Source of the DNA: a virus
Lineage: Duplodnaviria > Heunggongvirae > Uroviricota > Caudoviricetes
DNA: 9,493 nt
Direction: 5' to 3' (one strand)
IMG/VR virus record: IMGVR_UViG_2537561618_000014
The number at the start of each line of letters is the position of its first letter. Positions within the stretch are counted from its first letter, which is position 1. A program made the position numbers and the translations under genes. Under the pieces are notes generated by a model. The model made no database searches and was not told the origin of the DNA. It was given only the letters and a program-made list of their open reading frames with translations. Shown piece by piece: positions 1 to 9,493 of the stretch.

Positions 1-87
1 ACTGAACAGCAGATTTACCGTCAGCTGACTGACGAGGTACTGGCCCTGCGATTGCCTGAAAACGGCTCACAACTGCACCATTCATAA
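1..87 (+). CDS. 3' end of an unidentified gene entering from the left edge (last 28 codons, ...TEQQIYRQLTDEVLALRLPENGSQLHHS*); partial
   Basis: Only frame 1 is open from the window edge to TAA at 85-87; the other two plus frames stop within about 30 nt. It converges on the minus-strand gene at 267-743. Product not recognised. Confidence 0.3.
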   Translation, partial: TEQQIYRQLTDEVLALRLPENGSQLHHS

Positions 88-266: not shown

Positions 267-743
267 TTACTTAACGTCAAACGCCCGAATTGAAGCCAAA
301 TCATCCAGACTGCTCAGCTCCTCTTTCATCTCACGCTGACGGCGATAAATCTCATCGTTGCGATCGACCTGCGCCTGCACCATTGCTGCCGCCAGTTCTT
401 CCAGTTCCGGCATCGACAGTTTCACCTGCTGATTATCGGCATCGCTCCACGCCATATGTGTTTGTGCTGTGACAGATTTTGCCAGCATGACTACCGGGGA
501 CAGGCGGCCCAGTGAGTCGGCGCCAGCATTCCAGATACGACCGTTCCATTCAAACGTGAACGGCTTCGCCTCCTGTTCTGTGCGCCATGCTTCAATTTCC
601 TGACGTCTGGCCTCTCTGGCCGCTTCCAGCATTTCTGGTGTCACAGTGAATGGGGCTATCTCACCCCATTTGCCACTTTGCAGTTCCTGCCAGATTTGCT
701 GACCCGTCGGTGCGACATCATCAGCGGTGGCTGTGTAGGGAAC
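267..743 (-). CDS. Phage-associated protein, 5'-truncated by IS600; weak resemblance to tail-fibre-assembly-like proteins (WNG..W motif) but lacks the usual Tfa C-terminal signature
   Basis: Track ORF 267-644 (GTG at 644). The same frame stays open upstream to the IS600 boundary at 743/744 (...VPYTATADDVAPTGQQIWQELQSGKWGEIAPFTVTPEML...), so the gene continues into the insertion point and has lost its 5' end. Product assignment is tentative. Confidence 0.5.
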   Translation of the reverse strand, partial: VPYTATADDVAPTGQQIWQELQSGKWGEIAPFTVTPEMLEAAREARRQEIEAWRTEQEAKPFTFEWNGRIWNAGADSLGRLSPVVMLAKSVTAQTHMAWSDADNQQVKLSMPELEELAAAMVQAQVDRNDEIYRRQREMKEELSSLDDLASIRAFDVK

Positions 744-1645
744 TGAGGTGTACTGGCAATAGCGGACACTACCATTTGTCTTTTTTTAAGCAGCCATCTG
801 ATGATATTTTTCCCTGAAGGCTGCCGGGGAGATATTCCCCAGACGAGAGTGACGACGCTGACGATTGTAGAAAATCTCAATGTATTCCCGTATTACTGAG
901 ATGGCTTCATCCCGGTTATTAAAACGATAGTGGCTCAGGCTCTCATTTTTCAGCGTTCCCCAGAAGCTTTCCATCGGAGCGTTGTCGTAACAGTTACCTT
1001 TACGCGACATTGATGTTTTCAGACCAAACTGCTCCTGTATGACCCGGTAATCGTATGCGCAGTACTGTGAACCTCGATCAGAGTGGTGGATTAGCCCGGC
1101 AGGTGGGCGCTGGCTCCTGAGCGCCATAAACAGGGCTTTACCTGTCAGCTCTTTTGTCATGCGCTCTCCCATGGCGTAGCCGACAATTTCGCACGTATAA
1201 ACATCTTTGATGCCAGCGAGGTACAACCATCCCTCCTGTGTGGCAACATACGTCAGGTCCGCCACCCAGACCTGATTTGGTGCTGTAGGAGCGAACGTCT
1301 GGTTCAGCAGATTTGGCGCAACTGGCAGATTGTGGTTCGGGTTCGTAGTCGCTCTGAACTTGCGTTTCTGCTTACAGCGTAGCCTCAGCTCCTTACGAAG
1401 ACGTGCCAGTCGGTCACGACCAACGATGATGCCATTCTCTGCCAGCTCCGTCTGGAGCCGCCGGGTTCCATATGTTTCGCGAGTGCGGATATGTGCCACC
1501 TTAATCTCCAGTTTTAGCCGCTCATCACTTTGTTTTCTGTCTGAGGGTTCATGCTGTACCCAGTTGTAATAACCGCTCCTGGATACACCAAATACCTGAC
1601 ACATCGCTTCAATGGGAAATTGTTGTCGCCATTGTTCGATTAACG
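744..1645 (-). mobile_element. IS600 (IS3 family), truncated copy: right end plus orfB retained; orfA and left inverted repeat replaced by IS1
   Basis: Starts with the terminal repeat TGAGGTGTACTGGCAATAGCGGACACT at 744, the same sequence that starts the complete copy at 7770. Near-identical to 7770-8672 apart from a few substitutions and one indel. Homology stops at 1645 where IS1 begins. Confidence 0.85.
786..1604 (-). CDS. IS600 OrfB transposase catalytic region, orphaned (no orfA upstream)
   Basis: Track ORF 786-1820; residues from MCQVFGVSRSGYYNW onward match the second copy's OrfB (7813-8631) almost exactly. The first ~72 residues of the track ORF are read-through into IS1 and are not real. 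Without orfA and the frameshift site it is unlikely to make a functional OrfAB transposase. Confidence 0.85.
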   Translation of the reverse strand: MCQVFGVSRSGYYNWVQHEPSDRKQSDERLKLEIKVAHIRTRETYGTRRLQTELAENGIIVGRDRLARLRKELRLRCKQKRKFRATTNPNHNLPVAPNLLNQTFAPTAPNQVWVADLTYVATQEGWLYLAGIKDVYTCEIVGYAMGERMTKELTGKALFMALRSQRPPAGLIHHSDRGSQYCAYDYRVIQEQFGLKTSMSRKGNCYDNAPMESFWGTLKNESLSHYRFNNRDEAISVIREYIEIFYNRQRRHSRLGNISPAAFREKYHQMAA

Positions 1646-1700
1646 GGTAATGCTGCCAACTTACTGATTTAGTGTATGATGGTGATTTTAAGGTGCTTGC

Positions 1701-1976
1701 GTGGCTTCCATTTCCATCAGATGTCCTTCCTGCTCCGCTACTGAAGGCGTGGTGCGTAACGGCAAAAGCACTGCCGGACATCAGCGCTATCTCTGCTCTC
1801 ATTGCCGTAAAACATGGCAACTACAGTTCACTTACACCGCCTCTCAGCCCGGTACGCACCAGAAAATCATTGATATGGCCATGAATGGCGTCAGATGTCG
1901 CGCCAGTGCACGCATTATGGGCGTTGGCCTCAACACGGTTTTACGTCACTTAAAAAACTCAGGCCGCAGTCGGTAA
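1701..1976 (+). CDS. insA: IS1 InsA (transposition inhibitor / N-terminal part of the InsAB' transposase)
   Basis: 91-aa [38 protein letters not shown]..., the IS1 InsA family with zinc-finger-like cysteines. Confidence 0.9.
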
Positions 1977-2398
1977 CCTCGCGCATACAACCGGGCAGTG
2001 ATGTGATTGTCTGCGCTGAAATGGACGAACATTGGGGCTACGTCGGTGCTAAATCACGTCAGCGCTGGCTGTTTTACGCGTATGACAGGATACGGAGGAC
2101 GGTTGTGGCGCACGTCTTCGGGGAACGCACTCTGGCCACACTGGAGCGTCTTCTGAGCCTGCTGTCGGCCTTTGAGGTCGTGGTATGGATGACGGATGGC
2201 TGGCCGCTGTATGAATCACGCCTGAAGGGAAAGCTACACGTTATCAGCAAGCGTTACACTCAGCGCATTGAGCGACATAATCTGAATCTGAGACAACATC
2301 TGGCAAGGCTGGGACGGAAGTCACTGTCGTTCTCAAAATCGGTGGAGCTGCATGACAAGGTCATCGGGCATTATCTGAACATAAAACACTATCAGTAA
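1895..2398 (+). CDS. insB: IS1 InsB frame (expressed as InsAB' by -1 frameshift)
   Basis: 167-aa ORF in the -1 frame relative to insA and overlapping its 3' end; the standard IS1 arrangement. Confidence 0.85.
1952..1958 (+). other. IS1 -1 frameshift heptamer A AAA AAC
   Basis: AAAAAAC at 1952-1958, with AAA and AAC as zero-frame insA codons (...LKN...). This is the known IS1 slippery motif. Confidence 0.6.
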
Positions 2399-2458
2399 GT
2401 TGGAGTCATTACCAAGAAAGAGAAGGTAAAGAAGGTAAGTCCATACTGTCTCCACTAT

Positions 2459-2482
2459 AAAAAAACCGCCAATTTCTGGCGG
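2459..2482 (-). terminator. Rho-independent terminator (minus strand) of the exported-protein gene
   Basis: Stem CCGCCA / TGGCGG (2466-2471 / 2477-2482) with a 5-nt loop, followed on the minus strand by a T7 run (complement of the A-run at 2459-2465). It lies 9 bp past the stop codon at 2491. Confidence 0.65.
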
Positions 2483-2490
2483 CTTATATA

Positions 2491-2973
2491 TTAATCATCA
2501 TTAATATCTTTCATATTCAATTTGCAATTTTCGTAGGTCACTCCCGACTCGCCATTAACATTAACTCCAGCTCTGATATTCCCGTTTTCTTTTACATCTA
2601 CAAAAAACTGGCCTCTTGGCATCTTGAACGCAAATGTAAAACCAACAGTATCTGAATCAAAATCATCATCTTTATATATTGGGATCAAAAATGTCATCGT
2701 CGCTGGTGATGCATTGTTTGCAAAATCAAATACACCTATACTTTTGCCGAATTCATAAGAAGCTTTTCTCAATATAATCGCACCGCTGGCAGAAGGGGAT
2801 GGGCACGATATCCTCAGTTGTCTGAATCCATCTGTATCCAAGTCAACGTCATTATCTGCAGATGTTTTAACGTTACTAATAAATCGTGAAACAATCTCCT
2901 CATTTGTTAGTATTTTCGCCTGAGCACAGCAAGAGGTTAATATTGCAACCGTCATTAAAAATGGCTTTATCAC
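2491..2973 (-). CDS. Hypothetical exported protein or lipoprotein (160 aa), AT-rich, function unknown
   Basis: Track ORF with a GTG start at 2973 preceded by GGAG at 8-nt spacing. N-terminus MIKPFLMTVAILTSCCAQA has a basic residue, a hydrophobic core, a lipobox-like LTSC and an AQA signal-peptidase motif. Sampled 60-nt stretches are about 30-33% G+C by hand count, against about 60% in a sampled stretch of the adjacent tape measure gene. Own terminator downstream. Confidence 0.7.
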   Translation of the reverse strand: MIKPFLMTVAILTSCCAQAKILTNEEIVSRFISNVKTSADNDVDLDTDGFRQLRISCPSPSASGAIILRKASYEFGKSIGVFDFANNASPATMTFLIPIYKDDDFDSDTVGFTFAFKMPRGQFFVDVKENGNIRAGVNVNGESGVTYENCKLNMKDINDD

Positions 2974-3040
2974 AAAACAAACTCCATTGTTAGCATGTTA
3001 CGCGATAATTTTGCCTCATCTTTCACCACAAAAAAAGAAC

Positions 3041-4990
3041 TCACCTTTTAAATGGAGAATACCCAACATCATGGGTGATTTTCATAAAGGGATCGCCTGT
3101 TTTCGGCAAATCGATAACGCGCATTCCAGGCGGCGCGTTGTCAAACGTCACCTTAAGTTCGCTGCGGGTTGCCGGTGAAGATGCAAGGCTTAACAGCTGA
3201 TTCCTTTCCAGTGATACATTCGGGGTGTAGCGTTTATCGGGAGATAAATACCCATCACCACGTGGCATCTGCCATCCGGTCATGTCATAGACAAAATCAT
3301 GGAACTGTTTGCCCCACTCGTCGAACTTATCATTCAGACCAAATCCACTGTTCAGTGCATCAGCCACAAAATTTTTAACAAGCCAGGGATGTTCTTTTTC
3401 AAACTCCTGCGCCATCATGCCCAGTTCAAGCAATCCACCAATCAGACTGATCTTTCCGAGGCCCTTTAATTTCAGCCCTGTTTTTCCTGCCGCCGTTGTC
3501 CATTGATTCTGGGCGACTGTTGCCGCACGAATACTTGCCACCGCCTTCACACCAATATACAGGGCAGAAACCGTTGCTATTGTTTTTACTGCCTGTTCCC
3601 ATCCCCCCATTGCTCTGACAACCTGATCAACCTCCTGCCAGACTTTTTTCACAACCGGACCGACCGTTTCCCAGTTATCAATTATGAGATATGCACCACC
3701 GACGAGAAGCGCAATTAATCCCTTTGCCGGCGTCATATTCATCACGCTACCCATGATTTTTGTTATGCGTGTCAATGTGCCAATCGCCACGCCCATCGTC
3801 AGTAATGCCGCACCAGTTTTCGCGATGGTTTTTACGACCTCAGGATTTTCTCTGACAAACGTGCGCACTTCTTCCAGAAAAGGCTTCATCTCTTTTATGC
3901 CTTCATTGAGTGAAGGCAGGAAGGTTTCCCCCAGCGTGGAAGAAATCGCATTGATCTGGTTCTGCAGCAGCAACAACTGATTTTCTGTCGTCGCGGCACG
4001 GGCGGCATATTCTTTCTGCATTGAGCCGCCATACTGCTGCGCATCCGCCACACGATTAAAGTTGGTTCGCAACAAATCCAGATTCGTGAGCAGCGGCGCA
4101 ATGGCCCCCAGGGATTCCTTCCCGAACAGCGCTTTCAGCACAGCAGCCTGTTTTTCTTTCGGCACTTTTGCCAGAGAATCCAGTACGTGCAGCATGGCCC
4201 CGCGGGCGTCTTTCTGCATATCCGCCGCCAGTTTTTTCGGGCTAATGCGCAACGAGCGGAGCACTTTTTTCTGCGATTTGGTGGCAGAATCCCTCGCTGT
4301 CAGCGACAACATAAAATTCTTTATCCCCGTCGCAGCAATTTCTGACTCCACCCCCATTCCGGCAATGGTTGCCCCCATTGCGGCAATCTCTCCGGAGGCC
4401 ACACCCGCAACACTGCCTAAAGGGCCAATACGGGTCACAACATCAGAAATCTTTTTCGCACTTGCAGGACCGGTATTGCCAAGATAGTTAATCTTATCCG
4501 CAAGCCCTGCCACCTCTCCCTGTGTCAGTTTAAAGGCAGTGCGCCACTGCGCCATCATCTGACCGGATTCTTCTGCCGTGGTGTCAAAGGCCACGCCCAT
4601 CTTCACGGCATCGTCAGTAAACTGCATCAGCTCGTCACGGGCGATACCAGCCTGACCACCCGCCGCCACAATTTCGGCGATACCTTCCGCCGACATGGGC
4701 AGTTCTGTTGACAGGTCGCGCACCTGCTCCGTCATTGCCTTAAACGCTTCCGGCGTATCCAGACCATCCACCACTTTCCGGACATCCGCCATTTTTGATT
4801 CAAGGGCAATGGCAGATTTGACCGGGAGCGCCAGCGCCCCCAGTACTGCGGTTCCGGCACCCGCTGCGCCCAGTGACAGGCTGGCAAACTCCTTTTTAAA
4901 ACCTTTCAGCTGGCGCTGCATTCCCTTCAGCGGTGCCGATACCTTATCCACGGCAGTGATGATCGCCTTCAGCTGAAAACTGTCAGCCAT
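3041..4990 (-). CDS. Phage tail tape measure protein
   Basis: 649-aa ORF, Ala/Gly/Leu-rich with predicted helical stretches and hydrophobic segments, positioned immediately after the tail chaperone gene whose frameshift extension ends overlapping this ATG (ATGGCTGA). Confidence 0.85.
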   Translation of the reverse strand: MADSFQLKAIITAVDKVSAPLKGMQRQLKGFKKEFASLSLGAAGAGTAVLGALALPVKSAIALESKMADVRKVVDGLDTPEAFKAMTEQVRDLSTELPMSAEGIAEIVAAGGQAGIARDELMQFTDDAVKMGVAFDTTAEESGQMMAQWRTAFKLTQGEVAGLADKINYLGNTGPASAKKISDVVTRIGPLGSVAGVASGEIAAMGATIAGMGVESEIAATGIKNFMLSLTARDSATKSQKKVLRSLRISPKKLAADMQKDARGAMLHVLDSLAKVPKEKQAAVLKALFGKESLGAIAPLLTNLDLLRTNFNRVADAQQYGGSMQKEYAARAATTENQLLLLQNQINAISSTLGETFLPSLNEGIKEMKPFLEEVRTFVRENPEVVKTIAKTGAALLTMGVAIGTLTRITKIMGSVMNMTPAKGLIALLVGGAYLIIDNWETVGPVVKKVWQEVDQVVRAMGGWEQAVKTIATVSALYIGVKAVASIRAATVAQNQWTTAAGKTGLKLKGLGKISLIGGLLELGMMAQEFEKEHPWLVKNFVADALNSGFGLNDKFDEWGKQFHDFVYDMTGWQMPRGDGYLSPDKRYTPNVSLERNQLLSLASSPATRSELKVTFDNAPPGMRVIDLPKTGDPFMKITHDVGYSPFKR

Positions 4991-5410
4991 GCTTCATCTC
5001 CTCGTTAATGCGGACGGCCTCGGCTTCCAGTTCTGTAAACTGCGAAACAGCCACCCGTCGCAGCTCCAGTGGATTCAGTTTCCAGAACCAGGCAACATTG
5101 TAGAGTCGTTTCCGGAGGTGCTTCCCGTCTCCGACTGGGTAAAAAAACGCAGGATCTGCATGCTGGTCTTAAAAATATCCAGTTTTGCCATCTGCGCCGC
5201 CGATGAACACGGGATCCCCGCCAGCAACGGGATATATTTCAGTGCCACCTGGCTGTCCAGTTTAATACTGCCTTCACCGGAAATAATGAAAGGAAAACCC
5301 AGCGCCTCGATTTCGTCATACGTGGGCTCGCGCAACTCCAGCACATGCAGCATTTCGTTATGCGCTGTCACCGGTTTTTTTAAAACTATTTCTGTAACGT
5401 TCATTGCCAT
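4983..5410 (-). CDS. Predicted -1 frameshift fusion of the tail assembly chaperone (E+E'-like / G-T-like product)
   Basis: After a -1 shift at the T7 run, the frame reads ...RFF YPVGDGKHLRKRLYNVAWFWKLNPLELRRVAVSQFTELEAEAVRINEEMKHG* and stops at TGA 4985-4983, overlapping the tape measure ATG (4990-4988). Confidence 0.55.
5075..5410 (-). CDS. Phage tail assembly chaperone (P2 gpE / lambda gpG analogue), zero-frame product
   Basis: 111-aa ORF between the tube and tape measure genes. Its ATG overlaps the tube stop (TAATGG) and is preceded by GGAGGG. It contains an in-frame T7 slippery run near its 3' end. Confidence 0.8.
   Translation of the reverse strand: MAMNVTEIVLKKPVTAHNEMLHVLELREPTYDEIEALGFPFIISGEGSIKLDSQVALKYIPLLAGIPCSSAAQMAKLDIFKTSMQILRFFTQSETGSTSGNDSTMLPGSGN
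5141..5147 (-). other. Slippery heptamer T TTT TTT for programmed -1 ribosomal frameshifting in the tail chaperone gene
   Basis: Plus-strand A7 at 5141-5147 is T7 on the coding strand, in phase X XXY YYZ with zero-frame codons TTT TTT (F89 F90). Confidence 0.55.
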
Positions 5411-5765
5411 TACTGATACCCTCCCTCTTCGCCGTGGAATTCAAGATCTGCCGTGCCTTCTTCGGCATTATGATTAGCCTCTCCGTGCAGCCATGCCGCC
5501 GAAAGCACATACACCATGCCGTTTGCCAGCTCAGCGGTAATCGTCATCTGGTCTGAGGTGGTAATTTTGTCGACCGGAAAGTTTTTGGGCACTTTAAACG
5601 TGCCCTTAACGTAAGGTGACCGCCAGGTCTCCTTGTAATCCACATCCCCTGCCATGCCGACGATGTCATCCCGGACATTGGTGTTCATCGGCACTTCAAT
5701 GCCACCTGTCAGCGATAACTGCTGACCATCCACTTTAAAAAACAGGTTCCGGCGATCTTTGCCAT
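5410..5765 (-). CDS. Phage tail tube protein; apparent frameshift near the 5' end (possible pseudogene or homopolymer error)
   Basis: The track ORF 5410-5835 would start 70 nt inside the sheath gene with no Shine-Dalgarno. A well-placed ATG at 5765-5763 with GAGGAG 8 nt upstream overlaps the sheath stop (TAATG) but is in a different frame and stops after 18 codons. One extra T in the T6 run (plus-strand A6 at 5737-5742) would join it to the long frame, giving about 118 aa (MAKIAGTCFFKVDGQQLSLTGG...). Tube assignment is by size and position between sheath and chaperone. Confidence 0.7.
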
Positions 5766-7261
5766 TATGCTGACTCCTCTGAATACTGAAGACGGAACTG
5801 GTTAACCACCGCAAAGACACGTAACTGATTAACATAATCCGGCGGGAACAGCGTATTCAGTCGGTTCGGGTTATCTGCATCACGCTCAACTATCAGATAC
5901 TGTTTAAACAGATCGTAATTTTCCACAATACCGGCACGCTCCATCTGACGATATGTCGCCAGAAGTTCCCCTTTGATAACGGCAGGAGTGACAATCGCCT
6001 GCCCCGGACCAAAACGGGTACCATCATTTGCCAGCTTGTGACGTCCGTACTTGCTTGTGATGACCGATTTCAGTTTGCGAAGAACATATGCACTGGTATG
6101 CAGAGTTTCACTGTCCAGATAGCTGTTGTCTGCCACGCCATACGCATTCTTTTTGTAGGTGGTTACGGAACGCTGGATCTGCAACGTGCCGCCTTCCACA
6201 TAAGCCGTCGCCACGCCGTGAGATAAAAGGGTCTGCTGCTCTGTCATGATGAATCGCTTACCTTTCGGTGCCGGAAGCATCCCCACCAGCTCCCCCGTCT
6301 GTGTCGGACGGGCAGGATCATTCCGGATAAATACCGCTTCACGGGCAAGGCGACTGGCAACCAGTTCATCGACAGGCGACTGGGTTTCTTTTTCGTAACC
6401 GGCAAGCGTGATATGTTGCTGATTATGCATATCTCCGGCACCAACCAGCTCTGACAGCGTTCCCAGTTTTGCGGTATAGACATGCCCGTATAACTGGCGC
6501 GCATAACTCCAGCGACCGCTGCTGTCATTCATTTCGGTCATCATCATATTGATGGAGGCGGCATCGTTGAACGGCAGACCGATAAAGTCGAATGCCTCAT
6601 CGCCCATAGCAGCAACAGCGGCGGTAAGATCAGGCGCTCCGCTACCGGCAGCACCGACTTCCGTCACCACCCGAAGCCCTGCTGGCAAAATCTCACCACC
6701 ACCAGAACCATAATAATTCAGACAGACCGGTAACTCATTACCATACAGCCCCTTATGACGGGCAGTCAGCGTCACCACGCCTGCATCAGATGACGCCGTA
6801 AACGGCAGGGTGATAACCCCGTTTACCGCTTCCTTAATCGCGGTGGCAACCGCAGTGGCATCATCGCCATTCACCACAGGCACCTGTACACGGGAGCGCC
6901 CGACATACAGACTCAGGGTGCCGCTTTCCTCTGCTTCTCCGGCAACCGTCACCCTGACCGTCGCCGCCGCCCCTCTGGCTTCCGGTACTGCAATAACATA
7001 CAGTTCACCGAAAGGATCTGTCTGACGGTAGACTTCCACCATACGCGCCAGCTGGCTCCCCGCCCCACAAATCTGGCGGGCATAATCTGCCGATGGCATC
7101 AGCACCAGGCTGTTAACCTCAATGGCTGCATCGTTGCTGGCATGCCCGATCAGTAATGCAGGCGCGCTGGTCACCGCTGTATTTGCCGCAGAATTGTTCA
7201 TCTCGGCGTAGAACAACGGCACCAGCGTATTCGACGGAACAGTATTAAAACTTATCGTCAT
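5765..7261 (-). CDS. Phage contractile tail sheath protein
   Basis: 498-aa ORF, first gene of a sheath-tube-chaperone-tape measure cluster. Its size fits sheath proteins of Mu-like rather than P2-like phages. Its ATG at 7261 overlaps the stop of the small upstream ORF (ATGA). Confidence 0.85.
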   Translation of the reverse strand: MTISFNTVPSNTLVPLFYAEMNNSAANTAVTSAPALLIGHASNDAAIEVNSLVLMPSADYARQICGAGSQLARMVEVYRQTDPFGELYVIAVPEARGAAATVRVTVAGEAEESGTLSLYVGRSRVQVPVVNGDDATAVATAIKEAVNGVITLPFTASSDAGVVTLTARHKGLYGNELPVCLNYYGSGGGEILPAGLRVVTEVGAAGSGAPDLTAAVAAMGDEAFDFIGLPFNDAASINMMMTEMNDSSGRWSYARQLYGHVYTAKLGTLSELVGAGDMHNQQHITLAGYEKETQSPVDELVASRLAREAVFIRNDPARPTQTGELVGMLPAPKGKRFIMTEQQTLLSHGVATAYVEGGTLQIQRSVTTYKKNAYGVADNSYLDSETLHTSAYVLRKLKSVITSKYGRHKLANDGTRFGPGQAIVTPAVIKGELLATYRQMERAGIVENYDLFKQYLIVERDADNPNRLNTLFPPDYVNQLRVFAVVNQFRLQYSEESA

Positions 7262-7419
7262 GATTTTTTAGCCTTATCCTGTTTAACACGTACCACATCA
7301 CCCGCCGCTATACGGCGGAACCAGTAGCTGCTTTCTTCCACATTTCGCCCTTCGGAAGGCAAAAGGTCTCCACGGGCAGGGTCAGGAACCGACCGCCCTT
7401 TCAGGGGTTTCACAAACAT
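7258..7419 (-). CDS. Small hypothetical phage protein (53 aa), translationally coupled to the sheath gene
   Basis: ATG at 7419-7417 (MFVKPLKGRSVPDPARGDLLPSEGRNVEESSYWFRRIAAGDVVRVKQDKAKKS*); stop TGA 7260-7258 overlaps the sheath ATG. Below the 60-aa cutoff of the supplied track. Weak SD (AAGAG). Confidence 0.35.
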   Translation of the reverse strand: MFVKPLKGRSVPDPARGDLLPSEGRNVEESSYWFRRIAAGDVVRVKQDKAKKS

Positions 7420-7428
7420 GAGGGACTC

Positions 7429-7769
7429 TTAATTCTGAGGGAAACGCATTTCCAGATGGTGCTCAATGTCACCATCCGGGCCAGTACCAGGATCGATGTA
7501 ATCCACATCAATACTCAGCAGGGATAAATCCGGCAGGGCATTCACGTCCTCTGCCTGTCGCGTGTCTTCTTCCGTGATTTCATACTTCGCCGTAAAATCA
7601 AACTGGTAATACAGTTCGTAACGGTTCAGATCCAGCAGGGTGCCACCGACATAAACAATCTCGCCCCCTTGCGGGTCCGGCATCCATCCAAGCAGGGCTT
7701 TCCAGAGTTCTCTCCGGACATCATGAACGGCGTCATAGGCTGCCCACTGCCCTTTTTCATCACGCTCAT
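7429..7769 (-). CDS. Phage structural or morphogenesis gene upstream of the sheath (possible neck / tail-completion protein), 5'-truncated by IS600
   Basis: Track ORF 7429-7785; the first five codons lie inside the IS600 terminus, so the true N-terminus is missing. About 113 C-terminal codons remain (NERDEKGQWAAYDAVHDV...EMRFPQN*). Function inferred from position only. Confidence 0.55.
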
Positions 7770-7812
7770 TGAGGTGTACTGGCAATAGCGGACACTACCA
7801 TTTATTCTTTTT

Positions 7813-8631
7813 TTAAGCAGCCATCTGATGATATTTTTCCCTGAAGGCTGCCGGGGAGATATTCCCCAGACGAGAGTGACGACGCTGACGATTGTAGAAA
7901 ATCTCAATGTATTCCCGTATTACTGAGATGGCTTCATCCCGGTTATTAAAACGATAGTGGCTCAGGCTCTCATTTTTCAGCGTTCCCCAGAAGCTTTCCA
8001 TCGGAGCGTTGTCGTAACAGTTACCTTTACGCGACATTGATGTTTTCAGACCAGACTGCTCCTGTATGACCCGGTAATCGTATGCGCAGTACTGTGAACC
8101 TCGATCAGAGTGGTGGATTAGCCCGGCAGGTGGGCGCTGGCTCCTGAGCGCCATAAACAGGGCTTTACCTGTCAGCTCTTTTGTCATGCGCTCTCCCATG
8201 GCGTAGCCGACAATTTCGCACGTATAAACATCTTTGATGCCAGCGAGGTACAACCATCCCTCCTGTGTGGCAACATACGTCAGGTCCGCCACCCAGACCT
8301 GATTTGGTGCTGTAGGAGCGAACGTCTGGTTCAGCAGATTTGGCACAACTGGCAGATTGTGGTTCGGGTTCGTAGTCGCTCTGAACTTGCGTTTCTGCTT
8401 ACAGCGTAGCCTCAGCTCCTTACGAAGACATGCCAGTCGGTCACGACCAACGATGATGCCATTCTCTGCCAGCTCCGTCTGGAGCCGCCGGGTTCCATAT
8501 GTTTCGCGAGTGCGGATATGTGCCACCTTAATCTCCAGTTTTAGCCGCTCATCACTTTGTTTTCTGTCTGAGGGTTCATGCTGTACCCAGTTGTAATAAC
8601 CGCTCCTGGATACACCAAATACCTGACACAT
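7813..8631 (-). CDS. IS600 OrfB (transposase DDE catalytic region; expressed as OrfAB fusion)
   Basis: Track ORF; the OrfB frame actually opens further upstream to the frameshift site near 8716. IS3-family OrfB with DDE-type integrase fold motifs (e.g. ...HSDRGSQYCAYDY...). Confidence 0.9.
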   Translation of the reverse strand: MCQVFGVSRSGYYNWVQHEPSDRKQSDERLKLEIKVAHIRTRETYGTRRLQTELAENGIIVGRDRLACLRKELRLRCKQKRKFRATTNPNHNLPVVPNLLNQTFAPTAPNQVWVADLTYVATQEGWLYLAGIKDVYTCEIVGYAMGERMTKELTGKALFMALRSQRPPAGLIHHSDRGSQYCAYDYRVIQEQSGLKTSMSRKGNCYDNAPMESFWGTLKNESLSHYRFNNRDEAISVIREYIEIFYNRQRRHSRLGNISPAAFREKYHQMAA

Positions 8632-8666
8632 CGCTTCAATGGGAAATTGTTGTCGCCATTGTTCGA

Positions 8667-8969
8667 TTAACGCGTATTTTTCAGCGACTCCTGTGCAAAA
8701 TACGCTGTTGCTTTTTTTAATATATCTCGCTCAAGGCGAGCTTCATTTAACGCCTTACGCAGTTGCAGAATTTCAGATTCCAGTTCAGCCACCGTGCGGG
8801 AACCAGGAGTACCGAGCCCTTTTCTGGCGGCGGTAACCCATTGTCCTAAAGTGCCTTCAGGAAGAGATAATCGGGAAGCGCCTTCACTGATCGAAAGTTG
8901 ATTTTCAAGAACCGTTCTGACAGCTTCGGCTTTGAACTCTTTAGAGTAACGTTGGGTTTTTCTGCTCAT
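8667..8969 (-). CDS. IS600 OrfA (helix-turn-helix / leucine-zipper DNA-binding component)
   Basis: 100-aa ORF MSRKTQRYSKEFKAEAVRTVLENQ...ERDILKKATAYFAQESLKNTR, matching IS600 OrfA as I recall it. Confidence 0.9.
   Translation of the reverse strand: MSRKTQRYSKEFKAEAVRTVLENQLSISEGASRLSLPEGTLGQWVTAARKGLGTPGSRTVAELESEILQLRKALNEARLERDILKKATAYFAQESLKNTR
8712..8718 (-). other. IS600 orfA-orfB -1 frameshift site (A AAA AAA G)
   Basis: Plus-strand T7 at 8712-8718 is A7 in orfA codons L-K-K. A -1 shift reads ...KKSNSVFCTGVAEKYALIEQWRQQFPIEAMCQVFGVSRSG..., joining into OrfB. Confidence 0.6.
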
Positions 8970-9033
8970 TATTAGCTCCTTCTGATGCCATTCTATTTCA
9001 GGAAGGAGTGTCCGTTAAACTCAGGCTACCTCA

Positions 9034-9269
9034 AAAAACTAGTATTAAGACTATCACTTAAATAAGTGATACTGGTTGTCTGGAGATTCAGGGGGCCAGT
9101 CTAATGAGTTCAGTAATATAAGCGAACTGAAGGATGCTGTTACGGAATATATTGAATACTACAACAGCAGAAGAATTAGCCTGAAATTAAAAGGTCTGAC
9201 TCCAAATGAATATCGGAATCAGACCTATATGCCTCGTGTTTAACTGTCCAACTTTTTGGGGTCAGTACA
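9034..9269 (+). mobile_element. Right-end remnant of a second IS3-family element (IS150-group-like), cut by IS600
   Basis: Contains a transposase C-terminal fragment and ends with an inverted-repeat-like terminus ...GTTTAACTGTCCAACTTTTTGGGGTCAGTACA (reverse complement begins TGTACTGACCCC..., resembling IS150-type ends). Begins abruptly at the IS600 boundary. Confidence 0.6.
9070..9243 (+). pseudogene. C-terminal fragment of an IS3-family OrfB transposase
   Basis: Open frame ...GGQSNEFSNISELKDAVTEYIEYYNSRRISLKLKGLTPNEYRNQTYMPRV* with stop TAA 9241-9243; typical C-terminal end of IS3-family OrfB proteins; no start or catalytic region present. Confidence 0.6.
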
Positions 9270-9284
9270 AACCGAGGCCAACGA

Positions 9285-9343
9285 ATGAACCAAGCAATTC
9301 AGATTGTTAGCCTCTTACCCGCCATCCGGCAAGGAGAAAGGCT

Positions 9344-9347
<4 letters not shown>
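9285..9347 (+). CDS. Short mok-like leader ORF (20 codons) coupled to hok
   Basis: ATG at 9285, MNQAIQIVSLLPAIRQGERL*, stop TGA 9345-9347 overlapping the hok ATG (ATGA). Much shorter than canonical mok frames, so the assignment is tentative. Confidence 0.3.

Positions 9348-9493
<146 letters not shown>

Follow-up and report, generated by a model that had tools for sequence, protein, structure and literature searches.

A phiP27-like tail tube gene one T short in an IS-bounded Shigella flexneri prophage fragment: probable under-call or neutral deletion

Introduction

Why does the tail tube gene of an otherwise recognizable phage tail module run out of frame within a few codons of its start? The question is raised by a stretch of 9,493 nucleotides (nt) of Caudoviricetes DNA (IMG/VR record IMGVR_UViG_2537561618_000014), hereafter the window, whose coordinates are used throughout and in which the sheath, tube, chaperone and tape-measure genes are read on the minus strand. 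The original prediction placed a frameshift of the tube gene at a run of six T (T6) and offered three explanations: an inactivating mutation in a decaying prophage, slipped-strand variation, or a homopolymer sequencing error. Here, we compared the locus with intact relatives, with other copies of the same remnant and with sibling assemblies of its source contig. The comparison leads us to lean, with modest confidence, towards an under-call of the homopolymer in this sequence.

Results

The tube gene lacks one base within a T run

Read directly on the minus strand, the stop codon TAA of the sheath gene (5767–5765) overlaps the tube ATG (5765–5763) as TAATG. This ATG is the start that carries a ribosome-binding site, and, as had been claimed, its frame differs from that of the long tube open reading frame (ORF) and meets a stop after 18 codons (Table 1). 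The T6 run covers the third base of codon 8 through codon 10, and the gene is out of frame past codon 9. Exactly one base is missing relative to the relatives, and it is located inside the T run, an observation that comes from direct alignment and not from a statistical pattern. The original description is confirmed in every element.

Adding one T to the run restores the continuous 118-residue protein that had been predicted, and this protein is identical to the annotated tube WP_001062338.1 of Escherichia coli FDAARGOS_944 and is found on >1000 public contigs. It matched Pfam PF10618 (Tail_tube) with 115.7 bits (gathering cut-off 23), covering profile positions 1–115 of 117. In the PDB, a single-sequence search returned only a weak match, to the 118-residue tail tube chain 9khy_G (E = 0.14), and a profile search returned no match. 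The position of the gene, between the sheath gene and the chaperone and tape-measure genes, is that of a Tail_tube gene in the window and in seven relatives; an uninterrupted frame from the conserved start is what the copy in the window lacks.

Relatives carry seven T

Seven T (T7) are present both in E. coli FDAARGOS_944, the complete E. coli genome closest to the window (99.8% identical), and in phage phiP27 (95.7%), each of which annotates a 357-nt tube gene starting at the TAATG overlap. Phage SfV has the same TAATG start, with TGT TAT TTC replacing the homopolymer. Using an 81-nt query centred on the T run, we retrieved 51 complete E. coli genomes, of which 50 had one extra base relative to the window and one, ETEC1746, was identical to it. 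Scanning IMG/VR with a gapped pattern built from the window gave T7 in 28 of 29 contigs, T6 in one and T8 in none.

The tube proteins of phiP27, SfV, ST64B, EPP-1, YeP1 and AH07 all have 118 residues and start at the ATG that overlaps the sheath stop. They have a common N-terminus, M-x-x-[IV]-[AG]-G-T-x-[FY]-[FV]-K-[VI]-DGQQ, and the nucleotide changes among their codons 2–12 are mostly in the third position. Functional homologues are read in a single frame in all cases, and the majority have TAT TTC in place of a homopolymer. Frame and N-terminus of the ancestral gene are thus those originally proposed, with the Pfam match running from position 1, and no intact homologue was found to start at the equivalents of 5835 or 5733. 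Judging from these alignments, T7 is the ancestral state of the tube gene.

With phiP27 L45 the restored protein shares 98% identity, and with its counterparts in SfV, ST64B, EPP-1, YeP1 and AH07 77–82%. As in the temperate myoviruses phiP27, SfV and ST64B, whose records describe the tube as similar to Mu gpM, the window has terminator, DUF2635, sheath, tube, chaperone and tape-measure genes in that order, with a TAATG overlap between sheath and tube. Unlike this group, it is one T short of T7, and its prophage has been cut to 5.36 kb by IS600 and IS1.

The T6 allele of ETEC1746 (QDW99_RS14920) is identical, as is its 81-nt context, and is labelled 'frameshifted' by the NCBI Prokaryotic Genome Annotation Pipeline (PGAP). 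Unlike that of the window, it sits in a complete-looking prophage that is 96.7% identical, which points to an independent occurrence of T6 there or to an independent error. PGAP already treats the identical allele as a frameshifted pseudogene, and the lesion described here is nothing new in kind.

Other assemblies of the same remnant

Over its full 9493 nt, the window matches the draft contig AFHC01000041.1 (GCA_000213475.2) with 100% identity; the products of this contig carry protein names reading Shigella flexneri. As a handle for the remnant we used the terminator ORF truncated by IS600, which identified 470 blocks in the public collection. All 10 S. flexneri remnant loci shown of these 470 blocks had an intact 118-residue tube with T7, and 8 of the 10 lay on contigs >4 Mb (for example CP001383, CP007037, CP026788 and LR213452). 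Compared with four such long-contig loci (L017, L018, L019 and L021), the window differed over 5337 nt solely by the missing T.

A second handle was the 107-residue product read from GTG 5733, the form that gene callers give for a tube gene with a broken 5′ end; 44 blocks were listed. Among the examples of this product that we fetched, T6 was present in L005–L011, L013 and L014. Two further examples had other lesions: L012 (GCA_000493265.1, ~4060–4100) has T7 but has lost a G, changing ATGGCA to ATGCA, and L015 (Logan assembly SRR13429671, ~2019–2070) has a 10-nt deletion in the 5′ end of the tube gene, GCCGG[AACCTGTTTT]TTAAAG. The clustering of the lesions at the 5′ end is an ascertainment effect, because a look-up with the 107-residue product finds only lesions in that part of the gene. 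T6 occurs on both alleles of the sole informative single-nucleotide polymorphism (SNP) of the remnant (5918 T/A). This incongruence requires either recurrence or error, so that the T6 sequences do not form one clean clade.

Four of the fetched loci (L006, L007, L008 and L013) represent a second, differently decayed copy of the phage in other genomes, 99.8% identical and covering window-equivalent positions 2864–7280, which adjoins bamD–rluD. In this copy IS600 lies 19 nt upstream of the sheath start, IS1 lies at window-equivalent 2864–2872, and baseplate genes are kept. In the published literature we found nothing specific on the T6 tube lesion.

Sequencing under-call or neutral deletion

We measured the error profile of sibling assemblies against L017 (CP026788). 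All six indels of AFHB were 1-nt under-calls in runs of 6–8 nt; AFGZ was short at another T7 and, outside the L017 comparison, also at an A6 and an A5; and AFHA was short at a C5. With the tube run left out, 4 of 25 seven-nt runs in the siblings (16%) were short by one. The Logan assembly of SRR060519 has one SNP and two under-calls in common with AFHB, yet it has T6 where AFHB has T7, which suggests that the call at the tube run depends on the assembler.

These data are consistent with the following sequence of events. The tube gene of this phiP27/SfV-type prophage, which has a Mu-like tail, is written with six T where its lineage has seven, and hence meets a stop after 18 codons; the missing T would have been dropped by the sequencing chemistry or by the assembler; and the true genome would carry T7, like nearly all other Shigella flexneri. 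The hallmarks expected of such an error are present, namely a single-base shortfall without other differences and the same class of error in sibling assemblies. Pyrosequencing- or nanopore-type under-calls likewise lose one base from a run of ≥7 nt relative to long-contig (>4 Mb) loci, although in the window, unlike in typical under-call drafts, the other 7-nt runs are correct.

The principal alternative is a genuine T6. By slipped-strand deletion, T7 would have lost one base after the IS600/IS1 wreckage, and the deletion would have drifted neutrally since, leaving the tube gene a true pseudogene in a dead remnant. We consider this appreciably less probable, if still a serious contender. Features of a frameshift pseudogene are there: relatives are in frame, the stop is premature, and the neighbourhood is degraded by insertion sequences (IS). 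For this assembly, however, indirect evidence leans against the presence of the lesion in the DNA of the organism itself. No frame of the tube gene would make the remnant functional, its terminator gene being split and its head and baseplate genes gone, and the lesion is not selected against. Other strains carry different 5′ lesions in the tube gene of the same remnant, the deleted G of L012 and the 10-nt deletion of L015. In addition, a shortage of U7 and A7 runs in the genes of E. coli and Shigella has been reported, which may reflect that such runs are hot spots of indels and slippage (PMC4066793; PMC5009743). Against a real deletion stand the intact tube gene at all 10 remnant places shown, the incongruence of T6 with SNP 5918, the rate of ~16% at which exactly such errors are demonstrated in the source assembly series, and the lack of any private SNP of the window in 5.3 kb relative to L017, L018, L019 and L021, which would leave a very short branch for this specific indel.

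Several observations count against an under-call. The seven other 7-nt runs of the window are of full length, none being under-called, and AFHC is cleaner than its siblings. T6 was found in three of the four sibling assemblies examined, above the 16% background expectation. It also appears in assemblies from other sources: the third-party annotation (TPA) draft GCA_018025975.1 (L005), which has no other indel; the second phage copy (L006, L007 and L013 among its loci), where all four assemblies have T6 and three have no further indel; ETEC1746; and the E. coli protein P0012 (...NGKDRRNLFFKVDG...), which is encodable by the T6 allele only. Genuine T6 alleles exist elsewhere.

We set a base rate of artefacts of roughly 8–16% per run against a frequency of real T6 in a random remnant-bearing lineage that seems to be at most about 5%. 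Because the siblings lose a base at ~16% of 7-nt runs and because T6 does not follow SNP 5918, we favour the under-call over a real deletion. We therefore infer that the T missing from this particular sequence was probably lost to homopolymer under-calling. Given the error profile, the sequencing error named in the original prediction is no less likely in this assembly than a real mutation.

Elsewhere in the window, at ~780 in a partial copy of IS600, we observed GACAAATGG where L010–L012 have GAACAAATGG, adjoining a 7-nt A/T run (A7). This gap is the only other 1-nt shortfall of the window relative to siblings.

If T6 were real, the chaperone gene, which overlaps the tube stop at 5410, could conceivably lose its translational coupling through a polar effect, and termination–reinitiation at GTG 5733 might likewise occur.

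Recoding, slippage and alternative starts

A different view of a real T6 is that it is leaky or programmed, with a −1 ribosomal slip at T_TTT_TTA, or polymerase slippage, yielding a full-length tube with the substitution F10L, so that the gene would be a pseudo-pseudogene or an on/off switch. The heptamer T(5742) TTT TTA(5736), of the type used by human immunodeficiency virus type 1 (HIV-1), is in zero-frame register with ATG 5765, and a −1 shift leads exactly into the tube frame; the chaperone gene of the same module has a T_TTT_TTT site of its own, and T6 recurs across several phage lineages. Nevertheless, we consider recoding very improbable. Every functional homologue is single-frame, and the two-frame arrangement is not conserved; a single E. 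coli genome out of 51 and a single IMG/VR contig out of 29 have T6, and T8 was never seen, which leaves no sign of two-way variation of the tract. The downstream RNA is not unusually structured (fold of 5745–5640, z = −0.75), and no Shine-Dalgarno-like stimulator lies within ~15 nt upstream of T6. E. coli heptamers that lack a stimulator shift only 2–10× over a background of 0.055% (PMC4066793); at ≤~0.5% this is too little for a tube protein needed in large amounts. Transcriptional slippage, for its part, has been discussed for A or T runs of 9 nt (PMC5009743), and the fragment lacks the other genes that a tail needs.

The lambda G/GT-type −1 frameshift also takes place at a T-rich slippery heptamer of a tail gene, and its likely true example in this module is the chaperone site at 5147–5141. 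Unlike lambda G/GT, the tube site has two frames that are conserved in no relative and has no stimulator, and a shift there would merely repair the deletion. We further considered the proposal that a real T6 recurs because it is tolerated, low-level −1 slippage producing the F10L protein and the T7/T6 tract tuning tail production in phiP27-like prophages like a dimmer; its chance of being correct appears slight. A phase-variable contingency tract was rejected on the rarity of T6 and the absence of T8, and the slipped-strand variation first entertained is not borne out. T6 is very probably not a recoding or regulatory feature. As a separate observation, the wild-type sequence TGT TTT TTT AAA itself contains a zero-frame T_TTT_TTT heptamer (5736–5744 equivalent), at which a −1 slip meets TAA at once and gives a 10-residue peptide, probably without significance.

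That the gene is intact but starts elsewhere, at ATG 5835 or GTG 5733, has next to no chance of being right: both ORFs are open and appear in draft annotations under the name 'phage tail tube protein', but neither start has a Shine-Dalgarno sequence, no relative with the T7 run uses either of them, and PGAP marks the T6 allele as frameshifted. As had been observed, ATG 5835 overlaps the sheath gene, by 71 nt in our measurement. Residues 1–30 of the resulting 141-residue protein are read over the sheath 3′ end in another frame and have no homology to tube proteins, the PF10618 match starting at residue 31 and running from profile position 8 onward. In the 107-residue form the 11 conserved N-terminal residues are missing, with the invariant G6, T7 and K11 among them, and the match runs from profile position 12 onward. 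Both starts were rejected on Pfam coverage, the missing Shine-Dalgarno sequence and the N-termini of the homologues.

The prophage fragment and its IS boundaries

Homology to intact prophages is restricted to ~2414–7771, a fragment of 5.36 kb that retains the C-terminal part of the terminator gene, the DUF2635, sheath, tube, chaperone and tape-measure genes, and a 160-residue gene (Table 1). About the first 74 codons of the terminator gene are missing in the window. IS elements bound the fragment on both sides, which confirms the decaying-prophage setting that had been proposed. With head, baseplate and fibre genes cut off and the terminator split, it makes no functional difference in which frame the tube gene is read; the fragment is unable to build a tail, with T6 and T7 alike.

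Table 1. Features of the tube locus and its surroundings in the window
Feature	Position	Strand	Remarks
Tail tube gene as it stands	5410..5765	-	Pfam PF10618, Mu gpM-like; 356 nt, relatives 357 nt (118 aa)
Shine-Dalgarno GAGGAG of tube gene	5774..5779	-	8-nt spacer to ATG 5765; conserved in aligned relatives
Frame opened by true start codon	5709..5765	-	18 codons MAKIAGTCFLKWMVSSYR, then TGA 5711-5709; direct reading
T6 homopolymer	5737..5742	-	Plus-strand A6; T7 in intact relatives; site of the 1-nt shortfall
Mechanical 141-aa ORF from ATG 5835	5410..5835	-	Different frame from ATG 5765; deposited as HBB9386607.1 in one draft annotation
107-aa ORF from in-frame GTG 5733	5410..5733	-	P0003; called as the gene by older annotations
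Tail sheath gene	5765..7261	-	498 aa, intact
DUF2635 gene	7258..7419	-	53 aa, intact
Tail terminator gene, C-terminal part	7429..7771	-	Split by IS600; homology to intact phages stops at 7771
Tail assembly chaperone gene	5075..5410	-	111 aa (Phage_TAC_7); start overlaps tube stop as TAATG
Predicted chaperone -1 frameshift site and extension	4983..5147	-	T_TTT_TTT at 5147-5141 (zero frame, codon 88); 52-codon extension
Tape measure protein gene	3041..4990	-	649 aa, intact
160-aa phage gene	2491..2973	-	No Pfam family; last complete gene before IS1 cut at 2414
Complete IS600	7770..9033	-	orfA 8667..8969, orfB 7813..8631
IS1	1642..2413	+	Approximate ends; truncates prophage just inside DNA-circularization gene
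Partial IS600	744..1649	-	~907 nt, abutting IS1

Left of the partial IS600 lie a DUF4376 gene and then the end of an IpaH-type gene. Positions 1–87 (plus strand) hold the last 28 codons and the stop of this effector gene (...LPENGSQLHHS*), and L010–L012 have a NEL-domain gene at the equivalent place, which together locate the fragment in an ipaH-carrying island of phage remnants. The exact DUF4376 protein (267–644, minus strand) was found on no public contig besides the source contig, and positions 1–743 differ from L010–L012 by five SNPs in ~740 nt. The left end of the window may stem from a rare lineage, be recombinant, or be a consensus into which paralogous copies of the prophage were collapsed.

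On the other side, some S. flexneri (L018 and L019, 3527–3760) still have a 77-residue N-terminal part of the terminator and head genes upstream of IS600. In the source contig, sequence from the cybB–gapC side abuts IS600 instead (7770–9493), which implies either that an IS mediated another deletion or rearrangement or that the assembly was mis-joined.

A predicted frameshift in the chaperone gene

The slippery site of the chaperone gene looks like a canonical programmed frameshift of the G/GT type. The −1 extension ends at TGA 4985–4983, overlapping the tape-measure ATG at 4990, and the predicted fusion has 142 residues. phiP27, ETEC1746 and SfV have conserved both the slippery site, which reads T_TTT_TTC in SfV, and a homologous extension. 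None of the records that we examined annotates this frameshift.

Discussion

The biological importance of the missing T is small, since the fragment cannot build a tail either way. Its consequences lie in annotation: the 141- and 107-residue 'tail tube proteins' reported from such drafts are artefacts of the broken frame, and in this draft series read support is needed before a single-base frameshift at a 7-nt run is counted as a Shigella pseudogene.

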